The notes: generated by a model from the letters alone, not told the origin. A stretch of 64,000 nucleotides of DNA from an uncultured virus (IMG/VR IMGVR_UViG_3300040735_000039) (IMGVR_UViG_3300040735_000039), one strand, 5' to 3'. Shown: positions 7,106 through 60,050, counted from the first letter of the stretch. Made by a program: numbers and translations.

Positions 7106-8363
7106 CATCGCTGAGGTCGGCAACCGACAGGTCGCCGGACATCAGGCGGGGCAATAGAGCATCGCGGGTGGTCGCCAAGCCTTCATTTTCGAGACCATTC
7201 GCGAAAATGGTATCTATGAAAATTTCAACGGCTTCTGTGAATTGAGCAACAACACCAATCGGAGGGATGATGATTGGCTCATTTTCGAGGAAACCGGTAA
7301 TGTCGAGGTTCTTTATGCCAGTCGTGCCGTTTTCGTAAGAGAACATCACTCTTTGGTCATAGAGGTATTTCCAATAGAAATACACGAATGCGGAATATCC
7401 ATCAGATGGCTTAACCGCTCGGCAAAAGTTCGTGCAAACCATACCTCGGTCGTAGCGGTCGAGAAGCGACTGAGTGATTAAGGCACAGCGTCCTGTTGAT
7501 TGTGTGGGACTACCACCAGAAATCTCGACAACTATGTCGCCAACGGCGAGTCGTTTAGAGACATAGTTTTTAGGAAGGATAAAGCGCGTGGGCATTTTAC
7601 CTTTATTACCGACATTAACATCTGGAATGTCAGCACCGCGAATGCAGTACACCTCTTGGGTGTTGTTGCCCGTAGGCGCATCCTTTCCCCAGTCACCTCC
7701 CAGCGTAGTTGAAATAACCTCGCTGAAAGAGCCTTCCCGCCAATCGTCAGGCATCACGCCCCCGAACGGCTCGAAGTCCACGAGCCACGACTTAAAAATG
7801 GCTTGCGCCATCTGCTCTAAATGATGATTTATCTTCCTGTTTTCGGCAATCCTAGCGTCGAGAGCAGAAAGTGTGGCAGCGATGGCTTGTTGTTCATAGA
7901 GCGGTACAACTGGTATGAGCAAGGACTGTATATTCTTCAAAGGTAGTTTTGCTTGAACCGCACCTACCGTAGCAGCTTTTATGGCATTCTGTCCGTCTTC
8001 AGAGAGTAAATAATAATATAGAAAGTCTCTATCAAGGTCGTGGATGTTAACCATTTTCGCACAGTTTTCAGTAAGATTTGCACCATCAAGCGACATTCCG
8101 ATTTTGGCGACTAATCCGATTGTTCCTACAATCGAGATGATCACGTCATCGGCATTAACTATGTATCGGGCAATTGTGGCTTGGGTCTCTTCATCTACAT
8201 ACTCATAGTCGGAGTTCAATTCAAGCACTTTTTCTGTGCCCAAATCTCTAACCCTAATATATGGGTGCTGAGTTGGCGAGGTCGTGAGGTTTTTACCCTT
8301 TGGAAGTCGTTTACCACCCTTAACATCCGCAAAATCAGAAAGTTGTCGGTAATCAAATGTCAT
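7098..8363 (-). CDS. hsdS: Type I R-M specificity subunit, complete allele (TRD1a + TRD2a)
   Basis: 421 aa; two TRDs separated by the conserved helix EQQAIAATLSALDARIAENRKINHHLEQMAQAIFKSW; overlaps the hsdM stop. Confidence 0.96.
   Translation of the reverse strand: MTFDYRQLSDFADVKGGKRLPKGKNLTTSPTQHPYIRVRDLGTEKVLELNSDYEYVDEETQATIARYIVNADDVIISIVGTIGLVAKIGMSLDGANLTENCAKMVNIHDLDRDFLYYYLLSEDGQNAIKAATVGAVQAKLPLKNIQSLLIPVVPLYEQQAIAATLSALDARIAENRKINHHLEQMAQAIFKSWLVDFEPFGGVMPDDWREGSFSEVISTTLGGDWGKDAPTGNNTQEVYCIRGADIPDVNVGNKGKMPTRFILPKNYVSKRLAVGDIVVEISGGSPTQSTGRCALITQSLLDRYDRGMVCTNFCRAVKPSDGYSAFVYFYWKYLYDQRVMFSYENGTTGIKNLDITGFLENEPIIIPPIGVVAQFTEAVEIFIDTIFANGLENEGLATTRDALLPRLMSGDLSVADLSDAK
7817..7835 (-). 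repeat. hsdS shufflon recombination site D in the central conserved region
   Basis: + strand CTAAATGATGATTTATCTT; encodes KINHHL on the coding strand. Confidence 0.92.
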
Positions 8364-9264
8364 ATCCTATCGCCCCCAGTCTTTTGCGGATTTCATCCTC
8401 CAACTCATGGGAACGTTTGAACATCTCGGATAGTTCACTTGTCAGCCGTGCCATCTTCTCCTCAAATGGCTCACCGTCGTCCTCCTGCTCCTCAATGCCC
8501 ACGTACCTCCCCGGTGTGAGTATGTAGTCCTGCTTTGCTATATCTTCCGTTGTAACAGCGGCGCAGAAACCCTTCACATCTTCGAGTGTTCCTTCATCGA
8601 AGGCCTCAAAGGTGGCAGCAATCTTAGATATGTCATCCGTGGTCATCTCACGTAAACGTCGATTGACCATCGTCCCCATCTTGCGGGCATCGATGAACAA
8701 CGTCTTGCCTTTCTGCTTTTTATTTCGGCTGATGAACCACAACGAAACTGGAATCTGGGTTGTGTAGAATAGCTGTGTAGGCATAGCAATAATACCTTCC
8801 ACAAGATCATCTTCAATTATTCTGCGACGGATATCTCCCTCACCGCCACTTTGAGATGAGAGTGATCCGTTCGCAAGGACCATACCGATTTTCCCGTTCG
8901 GCGACAGATGATGAATCATGTGCTGCAACCATGCAAAGTTCGCATTTCCTGAGGGTGGCAAACCATATTTCCAGCGCGGATCGTCATTAAGGGAGCCATC
9001 ATTCCAATCAGAAAGGTTGAACGGCGGATTCGCCAGGATGTAGTCTGCTTTTAATTGGGGATGCAGATCTTTGTGAAAAGTATCTGCATTGTATCCTCCA
9101 AGGTCTGCTTCAATACCATGAATAGCAAGGTTCATTAGCGCCATCTTACGGGTTGTGGGGTTGGAGTCTTGACCGAATACAGACAAGTTATTGATATTGC
9201 CTGAGTGATGCTTAACAAAGTCAGCAGATTGCACAAACATGCCACCAGAGCCGCAGCAAGGGTC
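8353..9264 (-). pseudogene. hsdM: 3' fragment of type I methyltransferase hsdM, interrupted by the prophage
   Basis: Reads GAC CCT TGC TGC GGC TCT GGT GGC ATG = DPCCGSGGMFVQS, then ANPPFN motif IV and LTPGRYVG; no in-frame ATG supplied by the phage end (in-frame TGA near 9352). Confidence 0.95.
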
Positions 9265-9290
9265 TATATAAATGCAGATTTTGATACAAT
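9263..9290. repeat. Left attachment junction: core TC (9263-9264) + phage arm TATATAAATGCAGATTTTGATACAAT
   Basis: Arm matches the reverse complement of 59432-59457 at 21 of 26 positions. Confidence 0.92.
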
Positions 9291-9292
9291 AG

Positions 9293-9330
9293 AAAAAGCC
9301 CTCCCCAGCCGAAAAATGGCTGAAAAGGGC
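9293..9330 (-). terminator. Intrinsic terminator facing out of the prophage toward hsdM'-hsdS
   Basis: Minus strand GCCCTTTTCAGCC-ATTTTTC-GGCTGGGGAGGGC-TTTTT (stem includes G-U pairs, then a U tract). Confidence 0.6.
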
Positions 9331-9528
9331 GCATAAACAGGGCTTCCGTGGTCAATTACTGACTTCAGAAGCCCTGTTTTACTTTATGGAATTGTCGGCG
9401 CTGCCGTTTCGGTCGGATGGCAACTTACCCCGCAAAAAAGGCGGCGAGGGAATAATTAAATTGTGTGGCAAAATTAAAAGGTGAGGCCAGCTCTCGCCCA
9501 ACCGAACAAAGTGTCAAATGCGCAATGT

Positions 9529-9564
9529 ATAAGTATTGACTTCTCAATACTTATGTGGTATTAT
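9529..9564 (+). promoter_or_regulatory. SigA-type promoter with an overlapping palindromic operator
   Basis: TTGACT(9536)-17 bp-TGnTATTAT(9559); perfect 11-bp inverted repeat ATAAGTATTGA-cttc-TCAATACTTAT covers the -35. Confidence 0.75.
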
Positions 9565-9589
9565 TGATGATGGAAGGCGGTGGATATAC

Positions 9590-9826
9590 ATGGCATTTAC
9601 TTATAAACCGTTGTGGAAGCTCCTCATTGATAAAGAAATGAGCAAAAAGAACCTTATGCAAGCAACAGGTATATCGAAATCGACAATGGATAAAATGGCC
9701 CGGTCAGAAACAGTATCGCTGGATGTTGTTGACCGTATATGTAATTACTTCGACTGTAAAATTGAAGATGTGATTGAGTACAGCAGGCCTAGAAATGAGG
9801 AAACACATGACCAAAGGATATTCTAA
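9590..9826 (+). CDS. Cro/C1-type HTH regulator (controller-like)
   Basis: MAFTYKPLWKLLIDKEMSKKNLMQATGISKSTMDKM...ICNYFDCKIEDVIE; overlaps the methyltransferase start. Confidence 0.88.
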   Translation: MAFTYKPLWKLLIDKEMSKKNLMQATGISKSTMDKMARSETVSLDVVDRICNYFDCKIEDVIEYSRPRNEETHDQRIF

Positions 9827-12170
9827 GGCGGCAGCTGGCACTTTTGCACTTAATAAGGGCGAAGCAATTCATCGGTGGTATTCGTATTTAGAGGGCTATT
9901 CTTCCTGCTTGATTGACGATGTTATCCGAGAAATCGGAGCGAAAGATATTCACGCTATTTATGACCCGTTTTGTGGCACTGGTACAACTTCGCTTGTTGC
10001 ATCAACATATGGTATTAAATCATATTACAGCGAAACCAACCCATTTATGCGAGAGGTTATCGAAGCCAAAACAAATTGCGTAAAAAGGCTACGCGATTCA
10101 GGTGTCGGCAGCTCACACCTCAAACAGTTCTTAAAAAACATCGAGAATTATAATATGAAATTGCGTCTTGAAGATGCGTCTTGGGATGGCTTTGAAAAAT
10201 ATTTTGAACCTGAAGTGTTATTCCAACTTCAAGACCTGCTCAATGAAATAAATAATATTTCTGATGATGATAGCCGCAAAATAGCCCTTGTCATCTTAGC
10301 CTCAATTACTGTACGAGCATCTAAAATGATAAGGCAGGGCGATTTGCGTTTTGCGAAGGAATCAGAAAAGAATGACAGCGATAGAGATGTAATACTTAAC
10401 TTCAGAAAAAAAATCGAAGATGCCATTGCGGATATCGATGGAGCAGATTGCGAAACTCACGCTGAGACTATATGTGTAAGTGATGATGCCAGAGACAGCA
10501 CACTTGAAAACATGATTGACTGCGTTATTACATCTCCACCATATTTGAATGGGACAAACTACATTCGAAACACCAAACTTGAATTGAAGCTATCGGGATT
10601 TGTAGTTTCTGAAAAAGACCTTCCAGCGTTTCATTCCAAAGGGATCATTGCCGGAATAAACAACGTGTCGAGGCGCACAATGGGATTTGAGGTCCCAGAT
10701 TGCGTTAAAGAATACATTTCCGAGTTGGAACCTGTTTCATATGATAAGCGAATACCCATTATGGTTGCTGGTTATTTTCATGACATGAGTCAAGTGATTT
10801 GCCGTTTGGCTCATGCGCTCAAAGATAACGGCTACTTTATTATGGATATTGGTGACTCGCAATTTGCAGGTGTTCACATACCGACGCACAAGATACTAAC
10901 TCAAATCTGTGAGGAGTATGGTTTTTGTCTCTACGATGAGGAAATTCTTAGGGAGCGTCGTTCAAAGAACGGAATGGTTCTATCACAAAGGTTACTAAAA
11001 TTTCGGTTGCATAAAGCAGCTAAGCCGAACGAGGTATTTCATGATGAGGCGGAATCATTCATTCAAAATATGCCCTACCACAAAGAACCATACTGCGGAA
11101 GAAACTGGGGACACGCATGGCATTCATTGTGTTCATATCATGGAAAATTAAAACCAGCCATTGCTCATTTTCTGGTCGAACAATTTACTAACGTTGGAGA
11201 CGTTGTTTTAGACCCTCTTTGTGGAGTCGGTACTATTCCTTTGGAGGCGTGTCTTCAAGGCCGTGTTGGTATTGGGAATGATTTGAGCGAGATGGCATTT
11301 ATTGTATCAAAAGCAAAACTTGAAAAGCCGTCGTTAGATGACGCTTTGCAGGTTGTGGCTAAGCTACAGAATTATATTGAAGCAAATGTTCAAAGTGAGA
11401 ATATTGATTCAGATATTGCAAAATATGAATTGTTTGGCTTTAACGGTAAAATATCTACTTATTTTCATGTCGACACATATCGTGAAATTTTATGTGCACG
11501 TAGGTACTTCCTGCCACGAATACAAGAAATCAGCGCTGCAGAATCGATGGTGTTTGCCTGCTTACTGCACGTATTGCATGGAAATCGCCCATATGCACTG
11601 TCTCGCAATTCTCACCCTCTTACTCCCTATGCCCCAAAAGGAGAGTTTGTATATAAAAACGTTATCGAGCATATCAAAGAGAAACTCATGTTATCGTATA
11701 AAAAGGGAGACTTTGAGCAATATATCGCCGGAAATGCAATTTGGGGCGATTATGAAACTCTTTCTCAAAAAGGGGTACTGGCAGATATCATAATATGTTC
11801 ACCTCCTTTTGCTGATTCAATACGCTTCTATATGCAAAACTGGATGAGACTCTGGCTATGTGGGTGGGAGCCGGAGGATTATAAAGATGCAGAGAATTTA
11901 TTTCTTGACCAAAAACAAAAGAAGAATTTTGATGTATATACATCATTCTTCGAAACTTGTGCTACCGTATTGAAGCCTCATGGAAAGGTAATCTTGCATC
12001 TTGGAAAAACCGATAAAATCGATATGGCTGAGGAACTATCTAAGCGAGCAGCTCCATACTTTGAAGAAATCTATCGTGGAAGCGAGGATGTTCAAACAGT
12101 TGAGAAACATGGGATAAAGGATAAAGGAGCCACAGTTGAGCACCAATACCTTTTTTTGATGAAGAAATAA
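9807..12170 (+). CDS. Tandem two-domain amino-DNA methyltransferase (probably N4-cytosine)
   Basis: Two motif I/IV sets: YDPFCGTGTT...ITSPPY and LDPLCGVGT...ICSPPF. Confidence 0.85.
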   Translation: MTKGYSKAAAGTFALNKGEAIHRWYSYLEGYSSCLIDDVIREIGAKDIHAIYDPFCGTGTTSLVASTYGIKSYYSETNPFMREVIEAKTNCVKRLRDSGVGSSHLKQFLKNIENYNMKLRLEDASWDGFEKYFEPEVLFQLQDLLNEINNISDDDSRKIALVILASITVRASKMIRQGDLRFAKESEKNDSDRDVILNFRKKIEDAIADIDGADCETHAETICVSDDARDSTLENMIDCVITSPPYLNGTNYIRNTKLELKLSGFVVSEKDLPAFHSKGIIAGINNVSRRTMGFEVPDCVKEYISELEPVSYDKRIPIMVAGYFHDMSQVICRLAHALKDNGYFIMDIGDSQFAGVHIPTHKILTQICEEYGFCLYDEEILRERRSKNGMVLSQRLLKFRLHKAAKPNEVFHDEAESFIQNMPYHKEPYCGRNWGHAWHSLCSYHGKLKPAIAHFLVEQFTNVGDVVLDPLCGVGTIPLEACLQGRVGIGNDLSEMAFIVSKAKLEKPSLDDALQVVAKLQNYIEANVQSENIDSDIAKYELFGFNGKISTYFHVDTYREILCARRYFLPRIQEISAAESMVFACLLHVLHGNRPYALSRNSHPLTPYAPKGEFVYKNVIEHIKEKLMLSYKKGDFEQYIAGNAIWGDYETLSQKGVLADIIICSPPFADSIRFYMQNWMRLWLCGWEPEDYKDAENLFLDQKQKKNFDVYTSFFETCATVLKPHGKVILHLGKTDKIDMAEELSKRAAPYFEEIYRGSEDVQTVEKHGIKDKGATVEHQYLFLMKK

Positions 12171-12210
12171 CATAAGGACAGGCTGACTAATCACAGCCTG
12201 TCCTTATGTT
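12169..12210. terminator. Hairpin between convergent genes (probable bidirectional terminator)
   Basis: Perfect 17-bp stem AACATAAGGACAGGCTG / CAGCCTGTCCTTATGTT with an 8-nt loop. Confidence 0.85.
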
Positions 12211-13697
12211 TATTCAATCGTTACCGATGTAGGGTAATGCCCAGTTTTTGTTTTATATTGCTCTGCAAGATCAACTTTTCCTGCAATAATTCGTTTCAAA
12301 GAATCATTGATTTTGTCCGATGTCCTAATTCCGTCTCTTACTTTTTGGTAATCAGCGTCCATAAGAAACTCATCATAAAACCATACAACATTCTCAATCA
12401 GCAGGTCTAACACTTCCTGATTAACAGCCTTTGTGCGAAGCTTCTCAAGGGATATACCTGTAATTTCGCTTAGCCTCTTTAGCTCGTCTGGGCTATAAAA
12501 GTCAACAGGAAAATGGTCGCTTTTCTGTGAATTATGGCTGCTACACAGACAGGTAGCTGATTCATCAAGCCTGTACAAATAGGCAAGTGGCATTGTGTGG
12601 TCTAATGCCATTTCGCCGAGCTCTATCTGTTTTGATGTCGGGCCGCATTTGAAGCAACGCTTATCAAACTTTTTCCATATATACTCGGAGAACTCCTTCT
12701 TTGTTCGATGTTCAAACTCGAAGTGAACGAGGTTGGTATGCAATAAATCGTTGACTAACACTTCAATTGCGCGTCGGCGCAAACCATCTTCTTTAAACTG
12801 TTGTGCGTTACGTTGTGGATTGAGCGGAGCATTTACAAAGAATTTCTTACACGCCTTGCACTCCAATTGATGGCCGTAGTAGGAGACAACTTTATTGTCT
12901 TCTATCCGTAGTCCTCTAAGATCGTCCGCACTCAATTCATCAATGTTTTGTATGGTGTACGCTCTGAAGGTTGAATGAACGCATGGCGCACGTTTCTTGC
13001 AATGAAGTGAAAAACTAAGGGTCTTCATCTCGTCATCCATATTGATTGGCAGATATCGACCACAGCGGTTACAGCTTTTTTGAACGACCCGGCGCCCTTT
13101 TGTAAGTGCCGTATCACTAACTAAGTATTCTCCGAACGGCAAAGCACTGTTCAAATAATATAGGTACGGGACGTGCATATATGTCTTTTGATAAAAACTC
13201 ACCGCACACGAAGTGTCAATAAAATCCTCTTTGCTGACGACGTCAAAATCGAATGAAATAAACTCTAATGCGTTGTAGGCAATACCGATTATTTCCATTG
13301 TTACGGTGACATCATAAATTCGAGAGTCTCTATTTATTGTTTGCTCTACATGAAAACCAACGTTACTCCAGCAGCCTTCTTCCATAACCTTCTTCTCAGA
13401 GGGCTGATGTTTATATTGCCGGCCTTCATATTGATATGACATGGTAAACTTTACTTCGGCTTTGCTCTGGGAATGAATGTATCCGCCGAAAGCAATAAGT
13501 GAGATTCCCTTCTCGAAAAGTTCAACAAGCTCTAACTCGTCGCGATGGAAAATAATGCTTTCTGTTCTACTGCTACTGATATGTTTTTCAGAATATACAA
13601 TACGGCATTCACCGCCGGTAGTATCTTCGCAAGTGTGATAACCGCTCTCACGCGTGGTTTCACGCCTACGGTATGTTCTCAAATCCTTTTGCGCCAT
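12210..13697 (-). CDS. Zn-binding HNH-type nuclease, putative restriction endonuclease
   Basis: CNRC, CKAC and CFKC pairs; ALDHTMPL...CLCSSHNSQKSD HNH-like motif; convergent with the methyltransferase. Confidence 0.65.
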   Translation of the reverse strand: MAQKDLRTYRRRETTRESGYHTCEDTTGGECRIVYSEKHISSSRTESIIFHRDELELVELFEKGISLIAFGGYIHSQSKAEVKFTMSYQYEGRQYKHQPSEKKVMEEGCWSNVGFHVEQTINRDSRIYDVTVTMEIIGIAYNALEFISFDFDVVSKEDFIDTSCAVSFYQKTYMHVPYLYYLNSALPFGEYLVSDTALTKGRRVVQKSCNRCGRYLPINMDDEMKTLSFSLHCKKRAPCVHSTFRAYTIQNIDELSADDLRGLRIEDNKVVSYYGHQLECKACKKFFVNAPLNPQRNAQQFKEDGLRRRAIEVLVNDLLHTNLVHFEFEHRTKKEFSEYIWKKFDKRCFKCGPTSKQIELGEMALDHTMPLAYLYRLDESATCLCSSHNSQKSDHFPVDFYSPDELKRLSEITGISLEKLRTKAVNQEVLDLLIENVVWFYDEFLMDADYQKVRDGIRTSDKINDSLKRIIAGKVDLAEQYKTKTGHYPTSVTIE

Positions 13698-13751
13698 AAT
13701 ATCCCTCCTCATGTAAAAAACAATTTATTCGGCTAAAGTAGGCAACCTTTG

Positions 13752-14411
13752 TTAAACACCAAGCCGATGCCTAATATCGTTTAACCACTCACCTTTATAC
13801 TTAAAATACTTTGGACCCGCTATGGCATACTTTTTTCCTGACAATAGTTTTGCCAATGCGGTAAGTGACATGGTTTCCCCGTTGTACTCGACATTTCGGT
13901 CGTCAACAACTATCGCTATGATTTCAGGATTACTACAATACTCAATTTTCTCACCAACTGGAATATTGCACTTGGCGAAAGAGAAATTAGTAGCACGTTC
14001 GGTGCTTTCTGTATCTATCTCTTTTGCTATTTCCTCAGCTTGCATTTCGTCCGTGCTGGGCTCCGCCAGCATTAACTTATCTGCGCAACCATGTATTTCA
14101 GCAATGGCTTCCAGAATGGAATATGCATCTTCTGGAGTCATCGCATAAAACTCTCGTATACGTTGCTTGCCGTTAAAACTTTCGACAGATCGAAGGTTGG
14201 GATTCAGCTTATCAATTATTGCGTGTATCTTTAAGTCGGACAATCGAGAACTCACCTCGTATGTAGCATAAACACGAAAAGCAAATGGAATACACTCACT
14301 ACGGTTGAGTTGATTTAACCGTTTATTTATATCATCCGCATATCCAATCTTTACATACTCTGGAAAACTCGGATTTGTTAGTATGTATATTACGCCATTT
14401 TTCTCTGTCAT
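13752..14411 (-). CDS. GIY-YIG (T5orf172-like) nuclease with a C-terminal RAMA/DUF4357-like domain
   Basis: GVIYILTNPSFPEYVKIGYA...RLNQL...REFY; C-terminal VEYNGETMSLTALAK. Confidence 0.8.
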   Translation of the reverse strand: MTEKNGVIYILTNPSFPEYVKIGYADDINKRLNQLNRSECIPFAFRVYATYEVSSRLSDLKIHAIIDKLNPNLRSVESFNGKQRIREFYAMTPEDAYSILEAIAEIHGCADKLMLAEPSTDEMQAEEIAKEIDTESTERATNFSFAKCNIPVGEKIEYCSNPEIIAIVVDDRNVEYNGETMSLTALAKLLSGKKYAIAGPKYFKYKGEWLNDIRHRLGV

Positions 14412-14488
14412 ACTTACCTCCACAATTTTCATAAGAGAGATACAGCCTGCCGATGTGTGTTCGGCAGGTTTTTTCTCTGGCTATTGCT

Positions 14489-15262
14489 TTACTCTGTAAT
14501 CGTACCTTCTTTGATGTGGTACGCAGTACCGCGCTCGTTGCAAAATGCAATCACGGCTTGTGCTTGTTCATTATAGAACGCCTTGTGATTACGAAAGGCA
14601 GTGACCTCTTTGCTGTAGTTTGTGCGACCGAAGATAATCTTGTCGGCAAACGATACCGCTTCGAGTAATGTAGCAATGTCCTGTTCTACAAGATTTGGTG
14701 TTGGGTATGGCTCCATGCTAATCCACGTGCTGCAACCTGCTTCGTGAAGCACTCTCAATGCAGCAAGCCGATCGGCGTATGCGGCAGCACCCGGCTCCAT
14801 GCGTGATCGGTAGTTCTCGTCGAGCGAAACAAGCGTAATGCCATATTCATTCTCGTGTGAAAGCTCCGCCAACTCTGCTGGAAGGATACCTTTCGTGAGG
14901 ATGCTGCACTTGATCCCGGCAGCGTTGAGCTTCCGAATGGCAGCAATACTCATATCGGCTATTTCGGGGTAGCCGCGCATAAACGGGTCTGTAGAGAAGC
15001 ACAATTGAACCGATTTGATCTTATCCTTGAGCTTTGGTATTTCTTTATCCAGTAGTTCGAGTGTGTTTGAAACGAGATATGGTTCTAACCATTCTTCATA
15101 GGACTTCACTTGACCGAATCGTTTTTTCATCATAAAAGCGTAGCAGGGGTATTTACATCCATGAGCACAGCCTTGAATGTGGTTCATCGTATAATCACCG
15201 TACTCTACGCCGGTCTTGTAGAGCATAGTTTTTCTTTCTATGTAACCCTTAACCTTCTTCAT
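14489..15262 (-). CDS. Radical SAM protein (spore photoproduct lyase-like)
   Basis: GCAHGCKYPCYA cluster motif, STDPF, ILTKG, SMEPY. Confidence 0.85.
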   Translation of the reverse strand: MKKVKGYIERKTMLYKTGVEYGDYTMNHIQGCAHGCKYPCYAFMMKKRFGQVKSYEEWLEPYLVSNTLELLDKEIPKLKDKIKSVQLCFSTDPFMRGYPEIADMSIAAIRKLNAAGIKCSILTKGILPAELAELSHENEYGITLVSLDENYRSRMEPGAAAYADRLAALRVLHEAGCSTWISMEPYPTPNLVEQDIATLLEAVSFADKIIFGRTNYSKEVTAFRNHKAFYNEQAQAVIAFCNERGTAYHIKEGTITE

Positions 15263-16371: not shown

Positions 16372-16585
16372 TACTATCTTCCTCCTTTGGTACAAGGTCC
16401 ATTATGTCGCCAATATTGCAATCCAGCGCTTTGCAAATTTTCATAAGCACTTCCATGCTTACAGTTTCCCCCTTGGAGAGCTTAGTAACAGAGGTCCAAC
16501 TGATGCCTGCGGCAACCTGCAGGTCCTTTTTCTTCATATCTTTATCTATCAGTACTTTCCATAACTTTTTGTAACTGACGTCCAT
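16364..16585 (-). CDS. Cro/C1-type HTH regulator
   Basis: MDVSYKKLWKVLIDKDMKKKDLQVAAGISWTSVTKL...ICKALDCNIGDIMD. Confidence 0.9.
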   Translation of the reverse strand: MDVSYKKLWKVLIDKDMKKKDLQVAAGISWTSVTKLSKGETVSMEVLMKICKALDCNIGDIMDLVPKEEDSSE

Positions 16586-49921: not shown

Positions 49922-49935
49922 GGAGGGAAAATTTC

Positions 49936-51450: not shown

Positions 51451-51454
51451 TTTC

Positions 51455-52804: not shown

Positions 52805-52818
52805 GGAGGATTATCATC

Positions 52819-53232
52819 ATGAAAGAAATCTGGAACTGGATTCAAATTGTATTTGCCGCCATTGGAGGCGGCATCGGCTGGTTTCTCGGAGGAGCGGACG
52901 GCTTCCTTTACGCGCTCATCGCCTTTGTGGTCATCGACTACATCACAGGCGTCATGTGCGCGATTGTAGACAAAAAGCTCTCCAGCGAAGTCGGTTTCAA
53001 GGGTATCTGTAAAAAGGTGCTCGTTTTTATTTTGGTAGGCGTAGGCAACATTATCGACGTTCAGGTGCTGGGACAGGCTGGAGTGCTTCGCACGGCGGTT
53101 ATTTTCTTCTACCTGTCCAACGAGGGCGTGTCGCTGCTTGAAAACGCCGGACATCTCGGCTTGCCCATCCCGGCAAAGCTGAAAGCGGTGCTGGAACAGC
53201 TCCACGACCGCAGCGAAAAGGAGGACAAGTAA
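52819..53232 (+). CDS. Phage holin (family 4-like)
   Basis: TM segments; DYITG, LSSEVGFKGICKK, NEGVSLLENAG.LGLPIP. Confidence 0.92.
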   Translation: MKEIWNWIQIVFAAIGGGIGWFLGGADGFLYALIAFVVIDYITGVMCAIVDKKLSSEVGFKGICKKVLVFILVGVGNIIDVQVLGQAGVLRTAVIFFYLSNEGVSLLENAGHLGLPIPAKLKAVLEQLHDRSEKEDK

Positions 53233-53946
53233 ATGAATCTGCATAAATTTTTACTCACGAACAACGACTGCTACAAGTCTGGCAAAACCATGACGCCGAA
53301 GGGCATTATGGTACATTCGACCGGTGCAAACAATCCGAATCTGAAACGCTATGTTGGACCCAACGACGGACTGCTCGGCGTCAATCAGTACGGAAACCAC
53401 TGGAATCAGCACATGGACAGGCAGGTGTGCGTCCATGCCTTTATCGGCAAGCTGAAGGACGGTAGCATTGCCATCTACCAGACGCTCCCGTGGAACATGG
53501 TCGGCTGGCACAGCGGCTCCGGCTCAAAAGGTAACGCCAACTATCTCGGCTATATTGGCTTTGAAATTTGCGAGGACGGTTTGACCGATGCCGCGTATTT
53601 CAATAAGGTCTACACCGAAGCCGTGGAGCTTTGCGTTTACCTCTGTAAGCAGTACAACCTTACAGAGAAGAACATCATCTGCCACAGTGAGGGCCACACG
53701 CTCGGCATCGCGTCCAATCACGGCGACGTCATGCACTGGTTTCCGAAGCACGGCAAGAACATGGATACCTTCCGTGCGGCGGTCAAGGCTGGACTGGCGG
53801 CAGATGCTCCCGTAACGCCTGCCACGCCGAAGAAGTATTACCGTGTCCAGCTCGGTGCATTTTCCGTTAAGGCGAACGCTGACGCCATGCTGGGAAAGGT
53901 CAAAGCGGCTGGCTTCACCGACGCCTTTGTGAAGTACAGCGAGTAA
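53233..53946 (+). CDS. Endolysin: N-acetylmuramoyl-L-alanine amidase + SPOR domain
   Basis: IMVHSTG, VHAFIG, GFEICED, ICHSEG; YRVQLGAFSVKANA. Confidence 0.92.
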   Translation: MNLHKFLLTNNDCYKSGKTMTPKGIMVHSTGANNPNLKRYVGPNDGLLGVNQYGNHWNQHMDRQVCVHAFIGKLKDGSIAIYQTLPWNMVGWHSGSGSKGNANYLGYIGFEICEDGLTDAAYFNKVYTEAVELCVYLCKQYNLTEKNIICHSEGHTLGIASNHGDVMHWFPKHGKNMDTFRAAVKAGLAADAPVTPATPKKYYRVQLGAFSVKANADAMLGKVKAAGFTDAFVKYSE

Positions 53947-54006
53947 AGAGTACGCCGTAGCAGCGCGAACGTCCATAAACCAGCGGTCAAGTTGTTGACT
54001 TACAGT

Positions 54007-54049
54007 TAATGCCCATCGGAGAATTTTCTCTGGTGGGCATTATTTTTTT
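54007..54049 (+). terminator. Intrinsic terminator after the lysis module
   Basis: TAATGCCCATCGGAGA-ATTT-TCTCTGGTGGGCATTA-TTTTTTT. Confidence 0.85.
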
Positions 54050-54056
54050 GCTTATT

Positions 54057-54100
54057 TTTTGTACGGCGGGCTCCTTTTTTTCCAGTGGGTAGTGAGGACA
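54057..54100 (+). promoter_or_regulatory. Class-1 phage promoter-like motif, copy 3
   Basis: TTTGTACGgcgggctcctttttttCCAGTGGGTAgtgaggaca. Confidence 0.75.
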
Positions 54101-54126
54101 AGGGTTCTCGGACTGGAGGAAATCTC

Positions 54127-54549
54127 ATGACAAATGAGCAAAGAGAACACATCACTACCATGCGACTGGGCGGCATCGGCTATACAGCCATTGCTAAAGC
54201 GGTCGGGCTGTCAAAGGACAGCGTGAAGGCCTATTGCCGCACTCATGGCCTTGCCGGGATAAAAGCACAAAGCAATACTCGAATCTCACCGACGCAAAGA
54301 TTTTGCTTGAATTGTGGAAAGTCGCTGGTACAGCTACCGCATCGGAAAGCTGCGAAGTTCTGCTGTGGCGAATGCCGTCAGGTATGGTGGAATGCGCACC
54401 CAGAGCAGGTCAATAAAAAGGCACTCTACTCCTTCACCTGCGTTTGCTGTGGTAAGCCCTTTACAGCATACGGCAATTCGTCACGAAAATATTGTTCTCA
54501 TGATTGTTATATTGCAGATCGTTTCAAAGGCGGTGAGCAGCATGACTGA
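54127..54549 (+). CDS. HTH + zinc-finger protein
   Basis: GYTAIAKAVGLSKDSVKAYCR; CLNCG, FCCGEC, CVCCG, YCSHDC. Confidence 0.8.
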   Translation: MTNEQREHITTMRLGGIGYTAIAKAVGLSKDSVKAYCRTHGLAGIKAQSNTRISPTQRFCLNCGKSLVQLPHRKAAKFCCGECRQVWWNAHPEQVNKKALYSFTCVCCGKPFTAYGNSSRKYCSHDCYIADRFKGGEQHD

Positions 54550-54718
54550 AGGCCAGTTCACCGCCGAAAAGCAATATCAAACTTCGCTGCTTCTGGCAAA
54601 AGAGCTTCTTGAAAAAGGGCTTTTGACGCGGGAGGAATACACCGTAATTAATACAATTCTGCTTCAAAAATACGGACCACCGTTGGGCACATTATTCTCC
54701 GAAATTGCCTTGCTATAA
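54542..54718 (+). CDS. SHOCT-like small protein
   Basis: AKELLEKGLLTREEY...LLQKY. Confidence 0.75.
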   Translation: MTEGQFTAEKQYQTSLLLAKELLEKGLLTREEYTVINTILLQKYGPPLGTLFSEIALL

Positions 54719-54743
54719 TCCGCTTTTAGAGTGATATATAGTA
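54703..54743 (+). promoter_or_regulatory. Class-2 promoter-like motif, copy 3, directly before the recombinases
   Basis: AATTGCCTTGCTATaatccgcTTTTAGAGTGAT. Confidence 0.72.
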
Positions 54744-54763
54744 GTGGAAAGGAGTGATTTTTC

Positions 54764-56533
54764 TTGAAAAATGTAACAAAAATCGAGCCGACCGTACCGC
54801 AAATGCCGGAGCGCAAAAAGGTCGCCGCCTACGCAAGAGTATCAATGGAGTCCGAGCGGCTGCAGCATTCCTTGTCGGCGCAGGTCAGCTATTACAGCGA
54901 GTTTATTCAAAAGCACACCGATTGGCAGTATGTCGGTGTTTATGCGGATAATGGCATCAGCGGTACCGGAACAGCCAAACGCGATGAGTTCCAGCATATG
55001 CTCGACGATTGCGAAGCGGGTAAAATCGATATCATTCTCACAAAGTCCATTTCCCGTTTTGCAAGAAATACGGTTGACCTTTTGAAAACTGTCCGGCACC
55101 TGAAGGAGCTCTGCATTTCCGTCCGCTTTGAGAAGGAAAACATCGACTCGCTTTCGGAGGACGGGGAATTGATGCTCACATTGCTTGGCTCCTTCGCACA
55201 GGAGGAGAGCCGCAGTATTTCGGATAATGTCAAATGGGGTACGGTCAAGCGCTTTCAGCAAGGCATACCGAATGGGCATTTTCCTATCTACGGCTATCGG
55301 TGGCAGGGCGAAACGCTGGTCATTGAGCCAGAGGAAGCGAAAATTGTGCGGTTGATTTACGACAACTTCCTGAAGGGTCTATCGGCCGAGACCACAGAAA
55401 AACAGCTTGAAGCGATGGGCGTAAAATCCTATAAGGGGATGCATTTTGGCAACACGTCAATCCGGCAGATTCTCCGGAACATCACCTATACCGGAAACCT
55501 GCTGTTCCAGAAAGAGTATACCGTTGACCCTATCAGTAAGAAAAGCCGTATCAATCGCGGCGAGTTGCCGCAATACTGGGTCGAGAACACACATGAAGCC
55601 ATCATCGACATGGAGACCTATAACGCAGTCCAAGCGGAAGTGGCGCGGCGGCGGGAGCTTGGCGTGTTTGCAAACTGGACGATTAACACGACCTGCTTCA
55701 CAAGTAAAATCGTCTGTGAAGCCTGCGGCAGGCCATTTCACCGTTCGACGCGTAGTCGGACAAACGGGAAATTCAAAGTGTGGGTATGCGCCAATCGCAA
55801 AGAAGGAAAGCCCCACGACTGTAAGGTCAGCGACCTACCGGAGTACATTCTGGAGCGTGTTGCAGCAGAGGCGCTTGGGCTGGACGAGTTTGACGCAGAT
55901 ACTTTTGCCGAGCAAATTGAAAAGATCGTGGTGCCGTCAGCGAATGTGCTCGTGTTCCATTTTTACGATGGGCGCATTATCTCCAAGGAGTGGGAATCCA
56001 CTGCTAAAAAGGATTGGTGGACACCTGAACGACGGCGGCTTTGGGGCGAACGACACAAGCGCAAAGACACCAATCCGAATAAGAATACCTACTACGAGTT
56101 CACCGGCTTTATTAAGTGCGGTCGGTGCGGCTCAAATTATCGCTGCCAATCCACCACCTTGAAGGACGGGACGAAAACACGCTCATGGTACTGCACAGCG
56201 CCGTCCGGCACCTGCGATAAGATTTCGATCAAGGATGATACCATGAAAACGCTTGTGACTGATGTGCTCGGTTTGGCAGAGTACGATGAAGCCGTGATGG
56301 ACGAGCAAATGGAATACGCTACCATCCTTGATAACACGGTCACCTTCCATTTCCGCGACGGGCATGAAGTATCCAGAGAATTTCATGACAAGCGTCACGG
56401 CACGAAGTGGACCGAGGAGCGCAGAGTCAAACAATCTCAAGCCATACGGGATAGCTGGACGGAGGAACGCCGAGCTGCCGTAGGAGAAAGGATGAAGCAG
56501 ATAAGGAGCGAAAAGAAATGGCCAAAACGGTAA
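54764..56533 (+). CDS. Large serine recombinase 1 (duplicated Zn-ribbon region)
   Basis: AAYARVS, KSISRFARN, recombinase domain, CEACG...C and CGRCG...C modules. Confidence 0.93.
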   Translation: MKNVTKIEPTVPQMPERKKVAAYARVSMESERLQHSLSAQVSYYSEFIQKHTDWQYVGVYADNGISGTGTAKRDEFQHMLDDCEAGKIDIILTKSISRFARNTVDLLKTVRHLKELCISVRFEKENIDSLSEDGELMLTLLGSFAQEESRSISDNVKWGTVKRFQQGIPNGHFPIYGYRWQGETLVIEPEEAKIVRLIYDNFLKGLSAETTEKQLEAMGVKSYKGMHFGNTSIRQILRNITYTGNLLFQKEYTVDPISKKSRINRGELPQYWVENTHEAIIDMETYNAVQAEVARRRELGVFANWTINTTCFTSKIVCEACGRPFHRSTRSRTNGKFKVWVCANRKEGKPHDCKVSDLPEYILERVAAEALGLDEFDADTFAEQIEKIVVPSANVLVFHFYDGRIISKEWESTAKKDWWTPERRRLWGERHKRKDTNPNKNTYYEFTGFIKCGRCGSNYRCQSTTLKDGTKTRSWYCTAPSGTCDKISIKDDTMKTLVTDVLGLAEYDEAVMDEQMEYATILDNTVTFHFRDGHEVSREFHDKRHGTKWTEERRVKQSQAIRDSWTEERRAAVGERMKQIRSEKKWPKR

Positions 56534-58092
56534 CCACAATTCCAGCGACACTGACACGCTTCACCGCAGCGCCGCTGAACGAAGTCAAAAAACGCCGCAC
56601 AGCCGGTTATGCCCGCGTTTCCACCGACAGCGAGGAGCAGCAGACCAGCTATGAGGCGCAGGTTGATTATTACACCAACTACATCAAAAGTCGTGAGGAC
56701 TGGGAGTTCGTGGAGGTCTATACCGATGAAGGTATCAGTGCCACGAACACGAAACACCGCGAAGGCTTCAAACGTATGATAGCCGATGCCCTCGCCGGAA
56801 AAATTGACCTTATTGTTACAAAATCGGTCAGCCGTTTCGCCCGCAACACCGTAGACAGCCTGACAACCGTTCGCAAGCTCAAAGAAAAAGGTATCGAGAT
56901 ATTTTTCGAGAAGGAGAACATCTGGACGCTCGACAGCAAGGGCGAACTGCTCATTACGATAATGTCCTCACTGGCGCAGGAGGAATCCCGCTCCATTTCT
57001 GAAAACTGTACATGGGGACAAAGAAAACGATTCGCGGACGGAAAGGTCACTGTGCCGTTCAATCGGTTTCTCGGCTACGACCGAGGCGAGGATGGCAATC
57101 TGGTCGTTAATCCGAAACAAGCAGCCACAGTCAGACGCATTTACAGTATGTTCCTACAGGGCATGACACCCTTCGGCATTGCTTCCAAGCTGACCGCTGA
57201 CGGTGTACTCTCGCCGGGCGGCAAAGAGCGCTGGAACGCCGGTGCAGTGCGGAGCATCCTCACGAATGAGAAATATCGCGGCGATGCGCTGCTACAAAAG
57301 AGCTATACCGTGGATTTTCTCACAAAAAAGAAAAAGCCCAACGAGGGCGAGATACCACAATATTATGTTGAGAATAATCATCAAGCGATTATCCAGCCTG
57401 ATGTTTTCGATATGGTGCAACGCGAGTTGGCGCGACGCGGGCAGAACCGCAGCCATCACAGCGGCGTTCACCTTTTCTCCGGCAAGATAAAATGCGGACA
57501 GTGTGGAAACTGGTACGGTTCAAAGGTCTGGCACTCCACCGACAAATACCGCTGCACGATATGGCAGTGCAATCATAAGTTCGGCGGCGACGAAAAATGC
57601 GGTACTCCGCATCTTACGGAGGAGGATATTCAGCGTTACTACCTATCGGCGGTCAACAAGCTGCTCACGGACAGGGACGACATCATCAGCACATTCGAGC
57701 TTGCCAAGAGCGCAGCCTTCGACACAACGGCGCTGGCTACAGAGCGGGATGAGCTGCAAAGTGAACTGTTGGTGGTCTCCGAGCTCCTGCAGCAGTGCAT
57801 TCAGGAAAACGCCCACGTCGCGCTCGACCAAACTGAATACCAGAAACGCTACGACGGGCTGACCGAGCGGTTCAACAAAGCCAAAGCTCGACTGGACACG
57901 GTCACGGCGACCATAAGCGACAAGCAGGCTCGTCAAGCGACAATAGAAGCCTTCCTCGACGAGCTCAGGAGGTTGGACATCGTCTCCGAGTTTCAGCCCG
58001 CGCTCTGGTACAGCCTCATGGATTTCATGACGGTTTACAGCAAGGACGATGTACGCGTCACCTTCAAGGACGGAACGGAGATACGGGCATAA
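56518..58092 (+). CDS. Large serine recombinase 2
   Basis: AGYARVST, KSVSRFARN, CGQCG Zn ribbon, coiled coil. Confidence 0.95.
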   Translation: MAKTVTTIPATLTRFTAAPLNEVKKRRTAGYARVSTDSEEQQTSYEAQVDYYTNYIKSREDWEFVEVYTDEGISATNTKHREGFKRMIADALAGKIDLIVTKSVSRFARNTVDSLTTVRKLKEKGIEIFFEKENIWTLDSKGELLITIMSSLAQEESRSISENCTWGQRKRFADGKVTVPFNRFLGYDRGEDGNLVVNPKQAATVRRIYSMFLQGMTPFGIASKLTADGVLSPGGKERWNAGAVRSILTNEKYRGDALLQKSYTVDFLTKKKKPNEGEIPQYYVENNHQAIIQPDVFDMVQRELARRGQNRSHHSGVHLFSGKIKCGQCGNWYGSKVWHSTDKYRCTIWQCNHKFGGDEKCGTPHLTEEDIQRYYLSAVNKLLTDRDDIISTFELAKSAAFDTTALATERDELQSELLVVSELLQQCIQENAHVALDQTEYQKRYDGLTERFNKAKARLDTVTATISDKQARQATIEAFLDELRRLDIVSEFQPALWYSLMDFMTVYSKDDVRVTFKDGTEIRA

Positions 58093-58096
58093 TCTT

Positions 58097-58143
58097 AAAA
58101 AACAACGCCTCTCAACCATTGTGGCTGGGAGGCGCTTCTTCGT
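58097..58143. terminator. Hairpin between convergent genes
   Basis: CGCCTCTCAACCA-TTG-TGGCTGGGAGGCG with flanking A/T tracts. Confidence 0.6.
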
Positions 58144-58146
58144 GTA

Positions 58147-59319
58147 TCAAATCCATAGCCTGCTACGTTCGTTACCCACAAACTCAAGCGCAACCGTTGT
58201 TCTTGATTTATGTAAAAGGATTTTTGAGCCCTTTTCTTTTATATCAGCATCACCTTTGTAATAGTACCACAGCAGATGATCAAAATCTTTTCTCGTTATG
58301 GCGTACCCTATGCGACATTCTACTTCACGCCTTATACGGTCAATCAGATTTCGATAGCCGAGATAATCACCGCGATTTCGCTGGCCAAACTCCTTTTCAA
58401 TTTTGCTCTGCTTCCTTGCCATGTGATTTTCACCGATGTACACCCATGCGTAATACGGAAGAATCTCACGCAGGATTTTATCATAAATACTATATCCGTC
58501 GGTTTCTAAAAGATAGCGTGACAAATATGTACAGTATTTTGATGCAAAGCTGAATGTATATCGACCATGTATTGCACCAGCAATCTGATTGACCAAACCG
58601 GCATCTTCGTTTTTAAGGCGCTCGTAAAAATCTGGCAGGTCACAAATAAATTGCGCCGTGATTTCTCTCCCGCGATTATCTCCCTGTTTCACACCTGATG
58701 AGGCTTGGTGTGTGGAGTTCTGAATATCGATTCTTTCAACGATACCGAGAATTACTTCATAATCTCGCGTGTACGGATGGTTTCTTATATAGTTGTAGGT
58801 TGACTCTTTGTTTTCTGGGTCCATATCCGAACGGTAATTCGAGTCGTTTTCAATGATGAAATTAATGCGATCTACATTCCCAGAGGTCAGCGCAAGCAGC
58901 CCATTCTTGTCAACATCAAACTTGTACGGACTTTCCTGTAAGATAAAAGGGTCTTGTGAGTTAACCACTGCCGAAACAGCCGGACTTGAATCCTGTTTGG
59001 ACTCCGAGAATTCGATTCCACTGGTTTTAAGAAAGCGCCTGAAGCGACGCAGATGTGCCATATATCCACTGAGATTTGCTTCGGCATTTCCACTGGACTG
59101 CTGCACCAACAGTTCAAGAAGCGTAGATTTTCCGAGAACTTCGAAGTTATCAGAGAGAACTATCTGCCAGAAAGCCTCCTGCCCTTTTTTTCTCCAAATG
59201 TAAAAGGCATCAGTAGATGATGTCATGACCGTATTCTGTGATAGATTTTGTGTGTTGAGGTATTTCTTATATGCTGCTCGAATCTCGTCGAGCGGACGGT
59301 TTTTTATGTCATCAACCAC
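58147..59319 (-). CDS. Prophage accessory protein, possibly HhH-type DNA glycosylase-like
   Basis: 390 aa; FSFASKYC...YSIYDK...RKDFDHLLW pattern; RBS AGGAGG. Confidence 0.6.
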   Translation of the reverse strand: MVDDIKNRPLDEIRAAYKKYLNTQNLSQNTVMTSSTDAFYIWRKKGQEAFWQIVLSDNFEVLGKSTLLELLVQQSSGNAEANLSGYMAHLRRFRRFLKTSGIEFSESKQDSSPAVSAVVNSQDPFILQESPYKFDVDKNGLLALTSGNVDRINFIIENDSNYRSDMDPENKESTYNYIRNHPYTRDYEVILGIVERIDIQNSTHQASSGVKQGDNRGREITAQFICDLPDFYERLKNEDAGLVNQIAGAIHGRYTFSFASKYCTYLSRYLLETDGYSIYDKILREILPYYAWVYIGENHMARKQSKIEKEFGQRNRGDYLGYRNLIDRIRREVECRIGYAITRKDFDHLLWYYYKGDADIKEKGSKILLHKSRTTVALEFVGNERSRLWI

Positions 59320-59431
59320 TAATATTGCCTCCTAAATACCAAAATCGCCGGTCAACACCGGCAAATGCACCGCTTACCCTGCAAGACCCCATTTTACCCC
59401 GCAAGAGGCAGGAAGTCACGGAAATAATTAA

Positions 59432-59459
59432 ATTGTATCAATCTCTGCATGAACATATC
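59432..59459. repeat. Right attachment junction: phage arm ATTGTATCAATCTCTGCATGAACATA + core TC (59458-59459)
   Basis: Inverted partner of 9265-9290; hsdM homology stops at the core. Confidence 0.92.
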
Positions 59460-60050
59460 GTATACGCGTCCTTTAAACGGCTGTAAAACTTCAACGAGTG
59501 TTCTTACGACACAAGATGGTGTAAAGAATTCGCCTGCTCGCTTACCTTCCTGTTCTGCAAATTTTGAAAGGCAATATTCATATGCACGGCCAAGAAGATC
59601 TTTATCGCTCCCATGGTCAACCATTTGAATATTGGTAAACAGATCCACTACATTACCAAGACGGCGTTTATCTAATTCACTACGGGAGTAGTTTTTTGGG
59701 AGTATATCCTTCAGCCGCTTATTTTCCTTTTCAATTGCCCTCATCGCATCGTCGATTACTGAACCGATCTCCTCCTTATGAGCTGCTTCGGAAATAACAC
59801 TCCAGCGAGCAGAAAGTGGCACGAAAAAAACATTGACTTCCGAGTAGGCGTCCTTATCCTCAACGTCGTCATCATCAGCTTCAAGTTCCTGGTAACGTTC
59901 TTCGAACTTGTCTGAAATATATTTTAGAAAAATTAGCCCAAGCACGACATGCTTGTATTCGGCCGCATCCATGTTGCCACGCAGAATATCTGCAGCTGCC
60001 CAGATTTGTTGTTCAAAGCCAATAGTGGCTGTGTTATTTCCATTTGCCAT
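59458..60050 (-). pseudogene. hsdM: 5' fragment of hsdM (197 codons + GA), running on into a 20-aa phage-encoded tail to 59394
   Basis: IWAAADILRGNMDAAEYKHVVLGLIFLKYISD, GEFFTP, FKGRVYD, then non-HsdM MFMQRLIQ... Confidence 0.95.

Follow-up and report, generated by a model that had tools for sequence, protein, structure and literature searches.

A Candidatus Heliusvirales-like prophage divides a type I hsdM gene directly before motif I, and its relatives enter several classes of defense methylase genes

Results

A prophage separates the two parts of hsdM

We analyzed a 64,000-nucleotide stretch of DNA from an uncultured virus (IMG/VR IMGVR_UViG_3300040735_000039; hereafter the window, meaning the whole stretch), in which the genes of a type I restriction–modification (R-M) system, hsdR, hsdS, and hsdM, are found together with a tailed prophage that lies inside hsdM. 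The gene, which runs on the minus strand, is broken at 59458|9264, and the insert between its two parts (9265-59457) amounts to 50,193 bp. On the plus strand, the left junction reads GCAGCAAGGG TC|TATATAAATGCAG at 9263-9264|9265 (preceding bases GGG) and the right junction CTGCATGAACATA|TC GTATACGCGTCC at 59457|59458-59459, which can also be written CATGAACATA|TC GTATAC, with one TC (GA on the gene strand) at each. Read along the gene, the hsdM 5′ part ends GTA TAC GA (59458), and the 3′ part begins GA C CCT TGC TGC GGC (9264). The halves, the junction bases, and the shared GA are therefore as an initial annotation, made from the sequence alone, had given them.

Joining the two parts on paper restores the reading of hsdM, with 593 + 912 − 2 shared = 1503 nt; the figure of 910 in the initial annotation is 912 minus the shared GA. 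The translations of both halves are stop-free and give 197 amino acids (aa) for the 5′ part and 303 aa for the 3′ part, i.e., 500 aa in total, so the uninterrupted HsdM that had been proposed is borne out. When aligned with two intact 500-aa homologues (P0001 and P0003), the halves are colinear with them and abut at FKGRVY|DPCCGSGGMF, with zero residues lost or doubled. P0001 shows 97% identity over the 3′ part and 80% over the 5′ part. A search with the HsdM 3′ part returned thousands of close proteins, and most of the 120 listed are ∼500 aa long. Public data contain near-identical HsdM proteins both at full length (P0001, 500 aa) and in truncated form (P0005, 295 aa, five member sequences). 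In one respect, the earlier description has to be corrected: it had placed the cut within the S-adenosylmethionine (SAM)-binding motif, while the cut actually falls immediately before motif I (Y|DPCCGSGG).

The start of hsdM is at 60050, right after a 72-aa helix-turn-helix (HTH) gene, and the 5′ fragment reads 21 codons into the phage before reaching a stop (open reading frame [ORF] 59394-60050). As previously claimed, no replacement 5′ end is supplied by the phage, the first in-frame start of the 3′ part being an internal ATG at 9240. The other two genes of the system are intact, again in agreement with the initial annotation: hsdR matches all five expected Pfam domains, and the expressed hsdS is an open frame of 421 aa. 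With hsdR and hsdS open and hsdM in two pieces 50,193 bp apart, the locus is a type I R-M member by descent and is not intact in this genome.

The hsdS region contains inverted hsdS half-genes, common inverted repeats, and a neighboring tyrosine recombinase. The repeats shared by silent and expressed hsdS lie at 4017-4121/7731-7835 (105 nt, 90%) and 4644-4718/7092-7166 (75 nt, 84%). Judging from its position and these repeats, the tyrosine recombinase is probably of the hsdS-inverting type, and the genes and repeats together indicate that the host system is of the phase-variable (hsdS-inverting) kind.

Tandem serine recombinases and a symmetric attachment site

Two large serine recombinase genes are located near the right end of the prophage. 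Both are full length and match PF00239, PF07508, and PF13408 above the cut-offs. In recombinase 2, YARVSTDSEEQ aligns to YCRVSTDSEDQ of 3g13, so the catalytic serine motif is kept; the translation of recombinase 1 contains AAYARVSMESE, as read from the sequence rather than from a structure alignment. Recombinase 2 also matches the SPbeta integrase 9dxh (E 2e-10) and a TnpX fragment, 2mhc (E 8e-7), and it has 76-77% identity to NatCom/phi1605 phages and 52% to Streptococcus phage phi1207.3.

The prophage termini carry a 26-nt inverted repeat (9265-9290 and 59432-59457) whose copies are 81% complementary. Joining the ends gives an attP of the form TTGTATCAA-16 nt-TC-16 nt-TTGATACAA, i.e., 9+16+2+16+9 = 52 bp with imperfect dyad symmetry, and this size, the symmetry, and the nonpalindromic 2-bp crossover all fit what is expected of a serine integrase. 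The TC is found once at each junction, once in attP (in contig L081 and in 14 contigs described below), and once in empty sites (L123 and L124). Since the inverted repeat lies exactly at both ends and ends built alike are seen in dozens of other genomes, the junctions cannot be put down to chance. An assembly chimera was dropped as an explanation because many independent assemblies show junctions of this type, and a transposable (Mu-like) phage was dropped in view of the 2-bp duplication, the lack of a transposase, and the presence of serine recombinases.

Short direct repeats were noticed near both prophage ends, namely TTACCCYGCAA (9425, 59374, and 59394) together with GGAA(A)TAATTAAATTGT, spanning 9425-9462 and 59374-59436. 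Relatives have a comparable pair of short direct repeats no more than ∼60 bp from the right arm, and an accessory protein may bind at such repeats. By its count alone, TTACCCYGCAA is not significant, with four matches at ≤3 mismatches and 6 of 100 shuffles reaching four.

Unintegrated attP forms and empty sites in public data

The IMG/VR contig L081, which shares the right end of the window, begins P′ arm-TC-P arm, corresponding to the unintegrated attP form; it holds only 14 nt of the P arm, of which 13 match the window. A pattern search detected the full symmetric attP site in 14 IMG/VR viral contigs, three of which (L110, L114, and L120) match the window in both outer flanks and one (L113) only in the flank on the P′ side. 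The initial annotation had suggested looking among relatives for intact hsdM and for other elements at the same GA, and both were found: in two metagenome contigs (L123 and L124), the hsdM site is empty and TC is present once (DNA identity of these alleles, 74-78%), and other elements cut hsdM at Y|GA, as set out in the next section.

The nearest database record is a trimmed provirus of 40 kb that contains neither of the two junctions. We also compared the window with public sequencing runs. Phage DNA from 9282 to 10400 showed 0 differences in contigs of four runs from four studies, and these contigs leave the window sequence exactly at 9263/9264 and continue into other sequences. The best public runs contain ≤0.44 of the sampled window words; they hold the left part of the phage and leave 8353-9243 uncovered, so they are uninformative about that interval. 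In NatCom_3357 (PV036416.1), a motif search and a loose full-site pattern gave no attP-type site in 13.5 kb around the recombinases, and the ends of that phage may differ.

Relatives interrupt type I, type III, type IIG, and PglX-like methylase genes

Relatives of recombinase 2 occur at 561 places in a species-representative genome collection, and 80 of these loci were surveyed. The module of a SHOCT gene, recombinase 1, and recombinase 2 is present in nearly all of them, and homologues of the window's 154-aa ORF, holin, or amidase lie upstream of the recombinases in 53. One relative, in Paenibacillus (L007/G002), is ∼16 kb long and gave no holin or amidase match. By local profile search, an hsdM 5′ fragment was found in 16 of the 80 loci, each ending (V/I)Y|GA, after which comes an arm bearing the TTGATACAA motif. 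Fifteen of these 16 loci share the layout of the window, in which the fragment is downstream of the recombinases and on the other strand; in L028, it is upstream. A 17th locus (L065) has the mirror layout, its recombinase-proximal end abutting an hsdM 3′ part that begins DPFCGTGGF.

To cover targets other than hsdM, the ORFs running into element ends were classified. A recognizable GA-type end was located by position-weight search in 37 of the 80 loci, and the ORFs entering these ends were assigned by Pfam (30 ORFs of at least 40 aa) and PADLOC. Defense methylase genes were present at 24 of the 37 ends, comprising 13 hsdM (including one 38-aa fragment detected by local profile alone), 7 type III mod, 3 MmeI-like type IIG, and 1 PglX-like gene. 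The type III mod genes are cut at KCIYI|D(PPY) and the MmeI-like type IIG genes after the helicase-spacer domain, and all 24 cuts directly precede the Asp-Pro codons of a SAM-binding or catalytic motif. None of the 24 methylase ends was labeled as a type II methylase with a separate nuclease. In three more hsdM cases (L016, L028, and L064), the arms are variants that escaped the weight matrix.

We then turned to the other halves of the interrupted genes. HsdM 3′ parts beginning DPCCGSGGMF were located 16.1 kb and 53.7 kb from the 5′ parts in two of the five genomes searched; the remaining three, all metagenome-assembled genomes, gave no match with this query, which does not show that the part is absent. 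A type IIG 3′ part (DPACGCGNF start) lies 59.8 kb from its 5′ part in a complete genome, and type III mod 3′ parts (DPPYNTG start) were found 53.9 kb away on the same contig in one genome and on a separate contig in a second. A P arm of the window's type is present in every recovered two-half case (five other genomes). Among further candidates, L097 and L098 (mod, two further genomes) and L091-L093 (type IIG) showed no arm within three mismatches.

Identical 38-nt right arms stand beside different methylases, as seen for L003 (hsdM) and L004 (mod), for L001 (hsdM) and L022 (mod), and for L034, L036, and L041 (hsdM) and L039 (PglX). One recombinase lineage therefore accepts several of these targets. 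Viral contigs with left arms near-identical to that in the window are likewise joined to a PglX/type IIG 3′ part beginning DPCMGSGHILV.

Two side observations concern these loci. In L042-L058, which represent a sister clade of recombinase 2 (64-67% identity), element ends with TATGTAAACGCTGTCT and TTGATACAA abut the DDG(I/Y)SG part of other serine-recombinase genes, and this clade shows arrays of three or four recombinase genes that are nested insertions. In a Merdibacter sp. (L008, 14528-17585), the cut hsdM fragment lies directly downstream of a second, intact hsdM-like frame, a tandem of which one copy was struck.

Gene content and affiliation of the prophage

Pfam and PHROGs annotation showed the insert to be a complete siphovirus-type tailed prophage with all modules in open frames, as initially supposed (Table 1). 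Its large terminase subunit (TerL) is 83-90% identical to those of Erysipelothrix phage phi1605 and the NatCom phages, with 86.5% for NatCom_991 and 86.3% for NatCom_3357, the latter filed under Candidatus (Ca.) Heliusvirales. By TerL homology and a marker-type gene set, an identity-based assignment, the prophage belongs with Ca. Heliusvirales. The recombinase genes come last in the late/lysis region, the position usual for an ordinary phage.

The SAM synthetase gene sits between two ParB-methylase genes in a block that also includes HNH and amidoligase genes. Candidate defense genes lie near attL, and the phage may thus bring its own while disabling those of the host. Upstream of the recombinase pair, the overlap of the 154-aa and 134-aa SHOCT ORFs is kept in most of loci L001-L080; the two may represent one protein expressed by frameshifting, or an accessory recombination factor.

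Two families of intergenic direct repeats were also observed, one of 66 nt (61-83% identity; 19665-19730, 24057-24122, and 54035-54100) and one of 45 nt (71-80%; 35500-35544, 36895-36939, and 54691-54735). In both families, the last copy immediately precedes the small ORFs and recombinase 1. These repeats may be shared promoters or regulatory sites.

Table 1. Features of the window (positions counted from its first nucleotide)
Feature	Position	Strand	Evidence or remarks
hsdR, 1004 aa, intact frame	342..3356	−	Pfam HSDR_N, SWI2_SNF2, ResIII, T1R_D3-like, T1RH-like_C
Two silent hsdS half-genes (block 4041..5212)	4041-4712; 4571-5212	+; −	Pfam Methylase_S
Tyrosine recombinase between hsdS copies	5227..6219	−	Pfam Phage_integrase, Phage_int_SAM_4
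hsdS, expressed copy, 421-aa open frame	7098..8363	−	Pfam Methylase_S
hsdM 3′ part, 303 aa, begins DPCCGSGGMF	8353..9264	−	Pfam N6_Mtase positions 60-311; PADLOC MTase_I 195-504
Crossover dinucleotide TC, left copy	9263..9264		Gene strand GA
Prophage, Ca. Heliusvirales-like, 50,193 bp	9265..59457	+	All modules by Pfam/PHROGs; TerL identity
P arm of attP (left prophage end)	9265..9290	+	Inverted repeat; same arm type at attL of L086, L087, L099
Left-end cargo	9536..16395		HTH; 798-aa DNA methylase 9774-12170; 500-aa protein without assigned function
T5orf172 protein	13752-14432		Matches PADLOC candidate PDC-S57, E 4e-102
Radical-SAM protein and 378-aa neighbor	14489-16395		Weak PDC-M30/M41 matches (PADLOC)
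HTH repressor-like gene, divergent from early genes	16364..16603	−	Pfam HTH_26; PHROG 3 transcriptional repressor
DUF2800 RNA motif	18899-19058	+	Rfam, 131 bits vs gathering score 60.2; upstream of early/replication genes
Replication module	20200..29874	+	DUF2800 exonuclease, Enc34/gp2.5-like single-stranded DNA-binding protein, family A polymerase, VapE primase-helicase, VRR-Nuc-like endonuclease, SNF2 helicase
Small terminase, ParB-methylase, SAM synthetase (33072-34256), second ParB-methylase	31179..35466	+	Pfam/PHROGs
Large terminase, portal, ClpP protease, capsid, connectors, tail tube, tape measure, tail proteins, holin, amidase	37505..53946	+	
Two overlapping ORFs in different frames, 154 aa and 134 aa	54085..54718	+	154 aa, PHROG 2308; 134 aa, SHOCT
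Large serine recombinase 1, 589 aa	54764..56533	+	Pfam Resolvase, Recombinase, Zn_ribbon_recom; PHROG 95 integrase
Large serine recombinase 2, 524 aa	56518..58092	+	Same three Pfam domains as recombinase 1
390-aa protein, variable slot beside attR	58147..59319	−	No Pfam, PHROG, or PADLOC match
P′ arm of attP (right prophage end)	59432..59457	+	Inverted repeat
Crossover dinucleotide TC, right copy	59458..59459		Gene strand GA
hsdM 5′ part, 197 aa, ends FKGRVY	59458..60050	−	Pfam HsdM_N, N6_Mtase 2-53; PADLOC MTase_I 4-194
72-aa HTH gene abutting hsdM start	60051..60269	−	Pfam HTH_26

Discussion

Site-specific integration and its predicted consequences for restriction

Together, these results make it likely that a temperate phage of the Heliusvirales type has integrated site-specifically in hsdM by serine recombination and that the same lineage targets the Asp-Pro codons of methylase genes. 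A precise inactivation of the restriction system, reversible in principle, is well supported. Under this model, the 52-bp attP would recombine with a host site in which the crossover is the GA of the Asp codon in VY-D-P-C-C-G-S-G-G, at the start of SAM-binding motif I, and the insertion parts the promoter and the first 197 codons from the catalytic 303 codons. With the promoter and N-terminal third severed from the catalytic part, functional HsdM could therefore not be made. In type I enzymes, the methylase is M2S and the nuclease R2M2S, and HsdM is needed for both methylation and restriction; thus, the phase-variable type I system would be inactive for as long as the phage stays integrated. 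If the same recombinase(s), together with a directionality factor, excised the phage, hsdM would be restored to the base. Such exact restoration is what serine-integrase chemistry leads us to expect, and in silico, the host ORF is interrupted by the element and rebuilt by its exact excision.

In the same way, the recombinase lineage lands on the Asp-Pro codons of type I, type III, type IIG, and PglX-like methylases. The most economical reason for this choice of site would be that the stretch is conserved, widespread, often on mobile islands, and dispensable. Since loss of the methylase in these four kinds of system also disarms restriction, the lysogen would survive, while in a classical type II pair, loss of the methylase would be lethal. 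A benefit to the phage from disabling defense is possible.

Several observations weigh against this reading or restrict it. Thirteen of the 37 recognized ends fall outside recognized methylase genes (2 in serine-recombinase genes, 1 in a DUF3987 gene, and 10 with no family match or a flank of <40 aa). Near-identical left arms were also found at three sites with only a short motif-like ORF (L082, L084, and L085), and the specificity therefore appears to be loose and partly at the DNA level. The acting enzyme may be recombinase 1, recombinase 2, or both. Recombination directionality factors have no common fold or family, and none was recognized in the Pfam/PHROGs annotation of the window. Neither a rebuilt hsdM nor a phage circle of this very strain was present among the reads and contigs of the public runs, and the runs found hold the phage and not this hsdM allele. 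That the lysogen neither methylates nor restricts with this type I system is inferred from what is established for type I enzymes, and a second hsdM may exist elsewhere in the host genome, beyond the window.

Is the choice of site itself a selected trait?

The initial annotation went further and took the integration site to be an anti-defense strategy. In this explanation, a lysogen lacking R-M, or BREX (bacteriophage exclusion), would favor the phage through its kin, its later replication, or the entry of further mobile DNA. Comparison lends support to the idea that the choice of site matters, since relatives do lie in type I, III, IIG, and PglX-like methylase genes. These are four nonhomologous target contexts, all of them defense methylases, at 24 of the 37 recognized ends, and two unrelated motifs are used, the gamma-class motif I (hsdM, MmeI-like, and PglX-like) and the beta-class DPPY (type III mod). 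In all the target systems, methylase loss removes restriction, and a type II system with a separate nuclease is missing among the 24; in addition, the phage carries three DNA methylases, a SAM synthetase, and candidate defense genes. Anti-defense by integration would also have a precedent, as prophages reportedly integrate into the CRISPR (clustered regularly interspaced short palindromic repeats) arrays of Streptococcus pyogenes.

Selection for anti-defense does not follow from this, however, and a by-product of a conserved, dispensable target fits too. An incoming phage must survive restriction before it integrates, and a resident prophage would carry the host methylation anyway, whereas the progeny of an hsdM-null lysogen, being without the host mark, would pay a cost. 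The missing type II targets can be plain survivorship, as such insertions kill the cell. Moreover, the sister recombinase clade lands in other recombinase genes rather than in defense genes, the 13 ends outside recognized methylase genes have to be accommodated, and a conserved, dispensable target is the standard explanation given for integrative and conjugative elements (ICEs) (PMC4701971). We therefore regard a selected anti-defense trait as possible but somewhat improbable. Its widest version would hold that a widespread temperate phage order of gut and digester Clostridia evolved tandem serine integrases that target the Asp-Pro codon pair of methylases, so that lysogeny systematically and reversibly knocks out type I, III, IIG, and BREX-like defenses, a selected replacement of defense by integration in which the phage brings methylases, a SAM synthetase, and candidate defense genes; we put this forward tentatively, as an idea that the evidence leaves on the doubtful side.

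Is the prophage a regulated switch?

The prophage had also been described as a reversible switch. Precise insertion with a 2-bp core by a serine-recombinase system was confirmed, and excision would rebuild hsdM exactly, but "switch" says more than this, as it implies excision that is regulated or free of lysis. Active lysogeny in the strict sense would require excision regulated by the host's need for restriction, without virions or killing, followed by reintegration. Its precise and reversible chemistry would suit such a role, the enzyme class is that of the comK, spsM, and sigK switches, and the same idea is voiced for ICEs in hsdM by Ambroset et al. (PMC4701971). Near-identical intact (P0001) and truncated (P0005) HsdM both exist publicly; yet, they come from different samples and not from one clone. 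Furthermore, nothing in the sequence ties excision to a host signal, the recombinase genes have the ordinary-phage position at the end of the late/lysis region, and the annotation of the window revealed no host-type promoter or separate excision gene. Active lysogeny in this sense is thus unlikely.

Least likely of all, and in our view quite improbable, is a defective or fixed prophage in a simply dead hsdM without reversal: the public runs gave no direct sign of excision for this strain and the Paenibacillus relative (L007/G002) is only ∼16 kb without a holin or amidase match, but no module is missing, the frames are open, neither recombinase is shortened, both hsdM halves are stop-free, a near-identical phage is seen in attP form, and phage parts recur with 0 differences in runs of four studies.

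Relation to known elements

Streptococcal ICEs of the Tn1549/Tn5252 superfamily with serine-integrase triplets insert in hsdM, according to Ambroset et al. 2016 (PMC4701971) and Lao et al. 2020 (PMC7563491), and the former remarks that excision might restore the gene when needed. These ICEs resemble the window in having tandem serine integrases, a site inside hsdM, a very short duplication (2-8 bp in the ICEs), and a target that is widespread but dispensable; they differ in being conjugative and having three recombinases, whereas the window has a tailed prophage with two recombinases and a SHOCT gene in a Clostridia-type host. Beyond hsdM, the relatives of the window's phage enter type III mod, type IIG, and PglX-like genes, and the likeness to the ICEs is one of description.

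Serine-integrase prophages that interrupt genes and act as switches are described for comK (Listeria phi10403S/A118), spsM (SPbeta), and sigK (skin) (PMC7397523, PMC5499854, and PMC4701971). There, too, a whole prophage lies in an ORF, a large serine recombinase is used, and the ORF is rebuilt exactly. In contrast to the window, which is known from sequence, those accounts offer experimental proof of regulated excision and of the need for the target gene, and their targets are developmental or competence genes rather than a defense gene.

Ca. Heliusvirales gut phages were described by de Jonge et al. 2024 (PMC11283538), who note methylases and SAM synthetase as common genes; the main text makes no mention of an integrase, recombinase, or integration site, and the recombinase cluster is called "DNA invertase". 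The NatCom records (PV0364xx) of this order resemble the window in TerL (83-87% identical) and recombinase 2 (76-77%), and the gene set is shared as well, with DUF2800 exonuclease, single-stranded DNA-binding protein, polymerase, primase-helicase, SNF2 helicase, methylase, and SAM synthetase.

Among streptococcal phages, phi1207.3 and the Javan/phi-Ssu phages have tandem large serine recombinases at the right end, as in the window, with 51-53% identity to recombinase 2. The Javan/phi-Ssu phages differ in target, the names phi-SsuSH0918_comEC and phi-SsuJS7_SSU0237 pointing to comEC and SSU0237, and comEC is presumably also the target of phi1207.3. TnpX of Tn4451 and TndX of Tn5397 are likewise large serine recombinases, although they are transposon/ICE enzymes with other targets and distant similarity; we take their crossover dinucleotide to be GA.

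The initial annotation left it as a question whether targeting of hsdM had been reported. For streptococcal ICEs it had (PMC4701971), while a full-text literature search, with most subscription journals outside its coverage, returned nothing on prophages inserted in hsdM, mod, or pglX or on the multisystem pattern. Thus, hsdM is already known as an ICE target, and family-wide targeting of defense methylases by a common phage order is, as far as could be found, unreported. In the tables of a study of Clostridium clostridioforme LM41, an ORF given as "HsdM N-terminal domain" appears at the edge of a prophage, and our guess is that this is the same situation as in the window.

If the pattern holds, lysogeny by a very common gut phage group would alter the immune state of the host: the lysogen, without its restriction or BREX-type barrier, would be more open to other DNA, and the barrier would be back only when the phage leaves. 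The recombinases would also offer a set of natural serine integrases for which many nonmodel Firmicutes already have a landing site. Annotators should be aware that what look like R-M genes "inside" a predicted prophage may be a target split in two. Whether the phage gains from its integration site is directly testable in culturable strains that have such loci, namely Zongyangia hominis NSJ-54, Haloimpatiens lingqiaonensis KCTC 15321, and Paenibacillus sp. DYY-L-2.

Surroundings of the host locus

The R-M locus includes a nitroreductase-like gene (6293-6898), and the 72-aa HTH gene next to the hsdM start is, from its position, a possible controller of the operon. The right flank (60740-63884) encodes an HTH_38 protein (441 aa), an IrrE/ImmA-like peptidase, and an Xre-type HTH repressor, and the locus may be on, or adjoin, another mobile element. 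For this HsdM subfamily, identity is 87-97% in proteins that their sources assign to Pelosinus, Methanoculleus, Salmonella, Dehalococcoides, and others, which suggests that the system moves readily between phyla.

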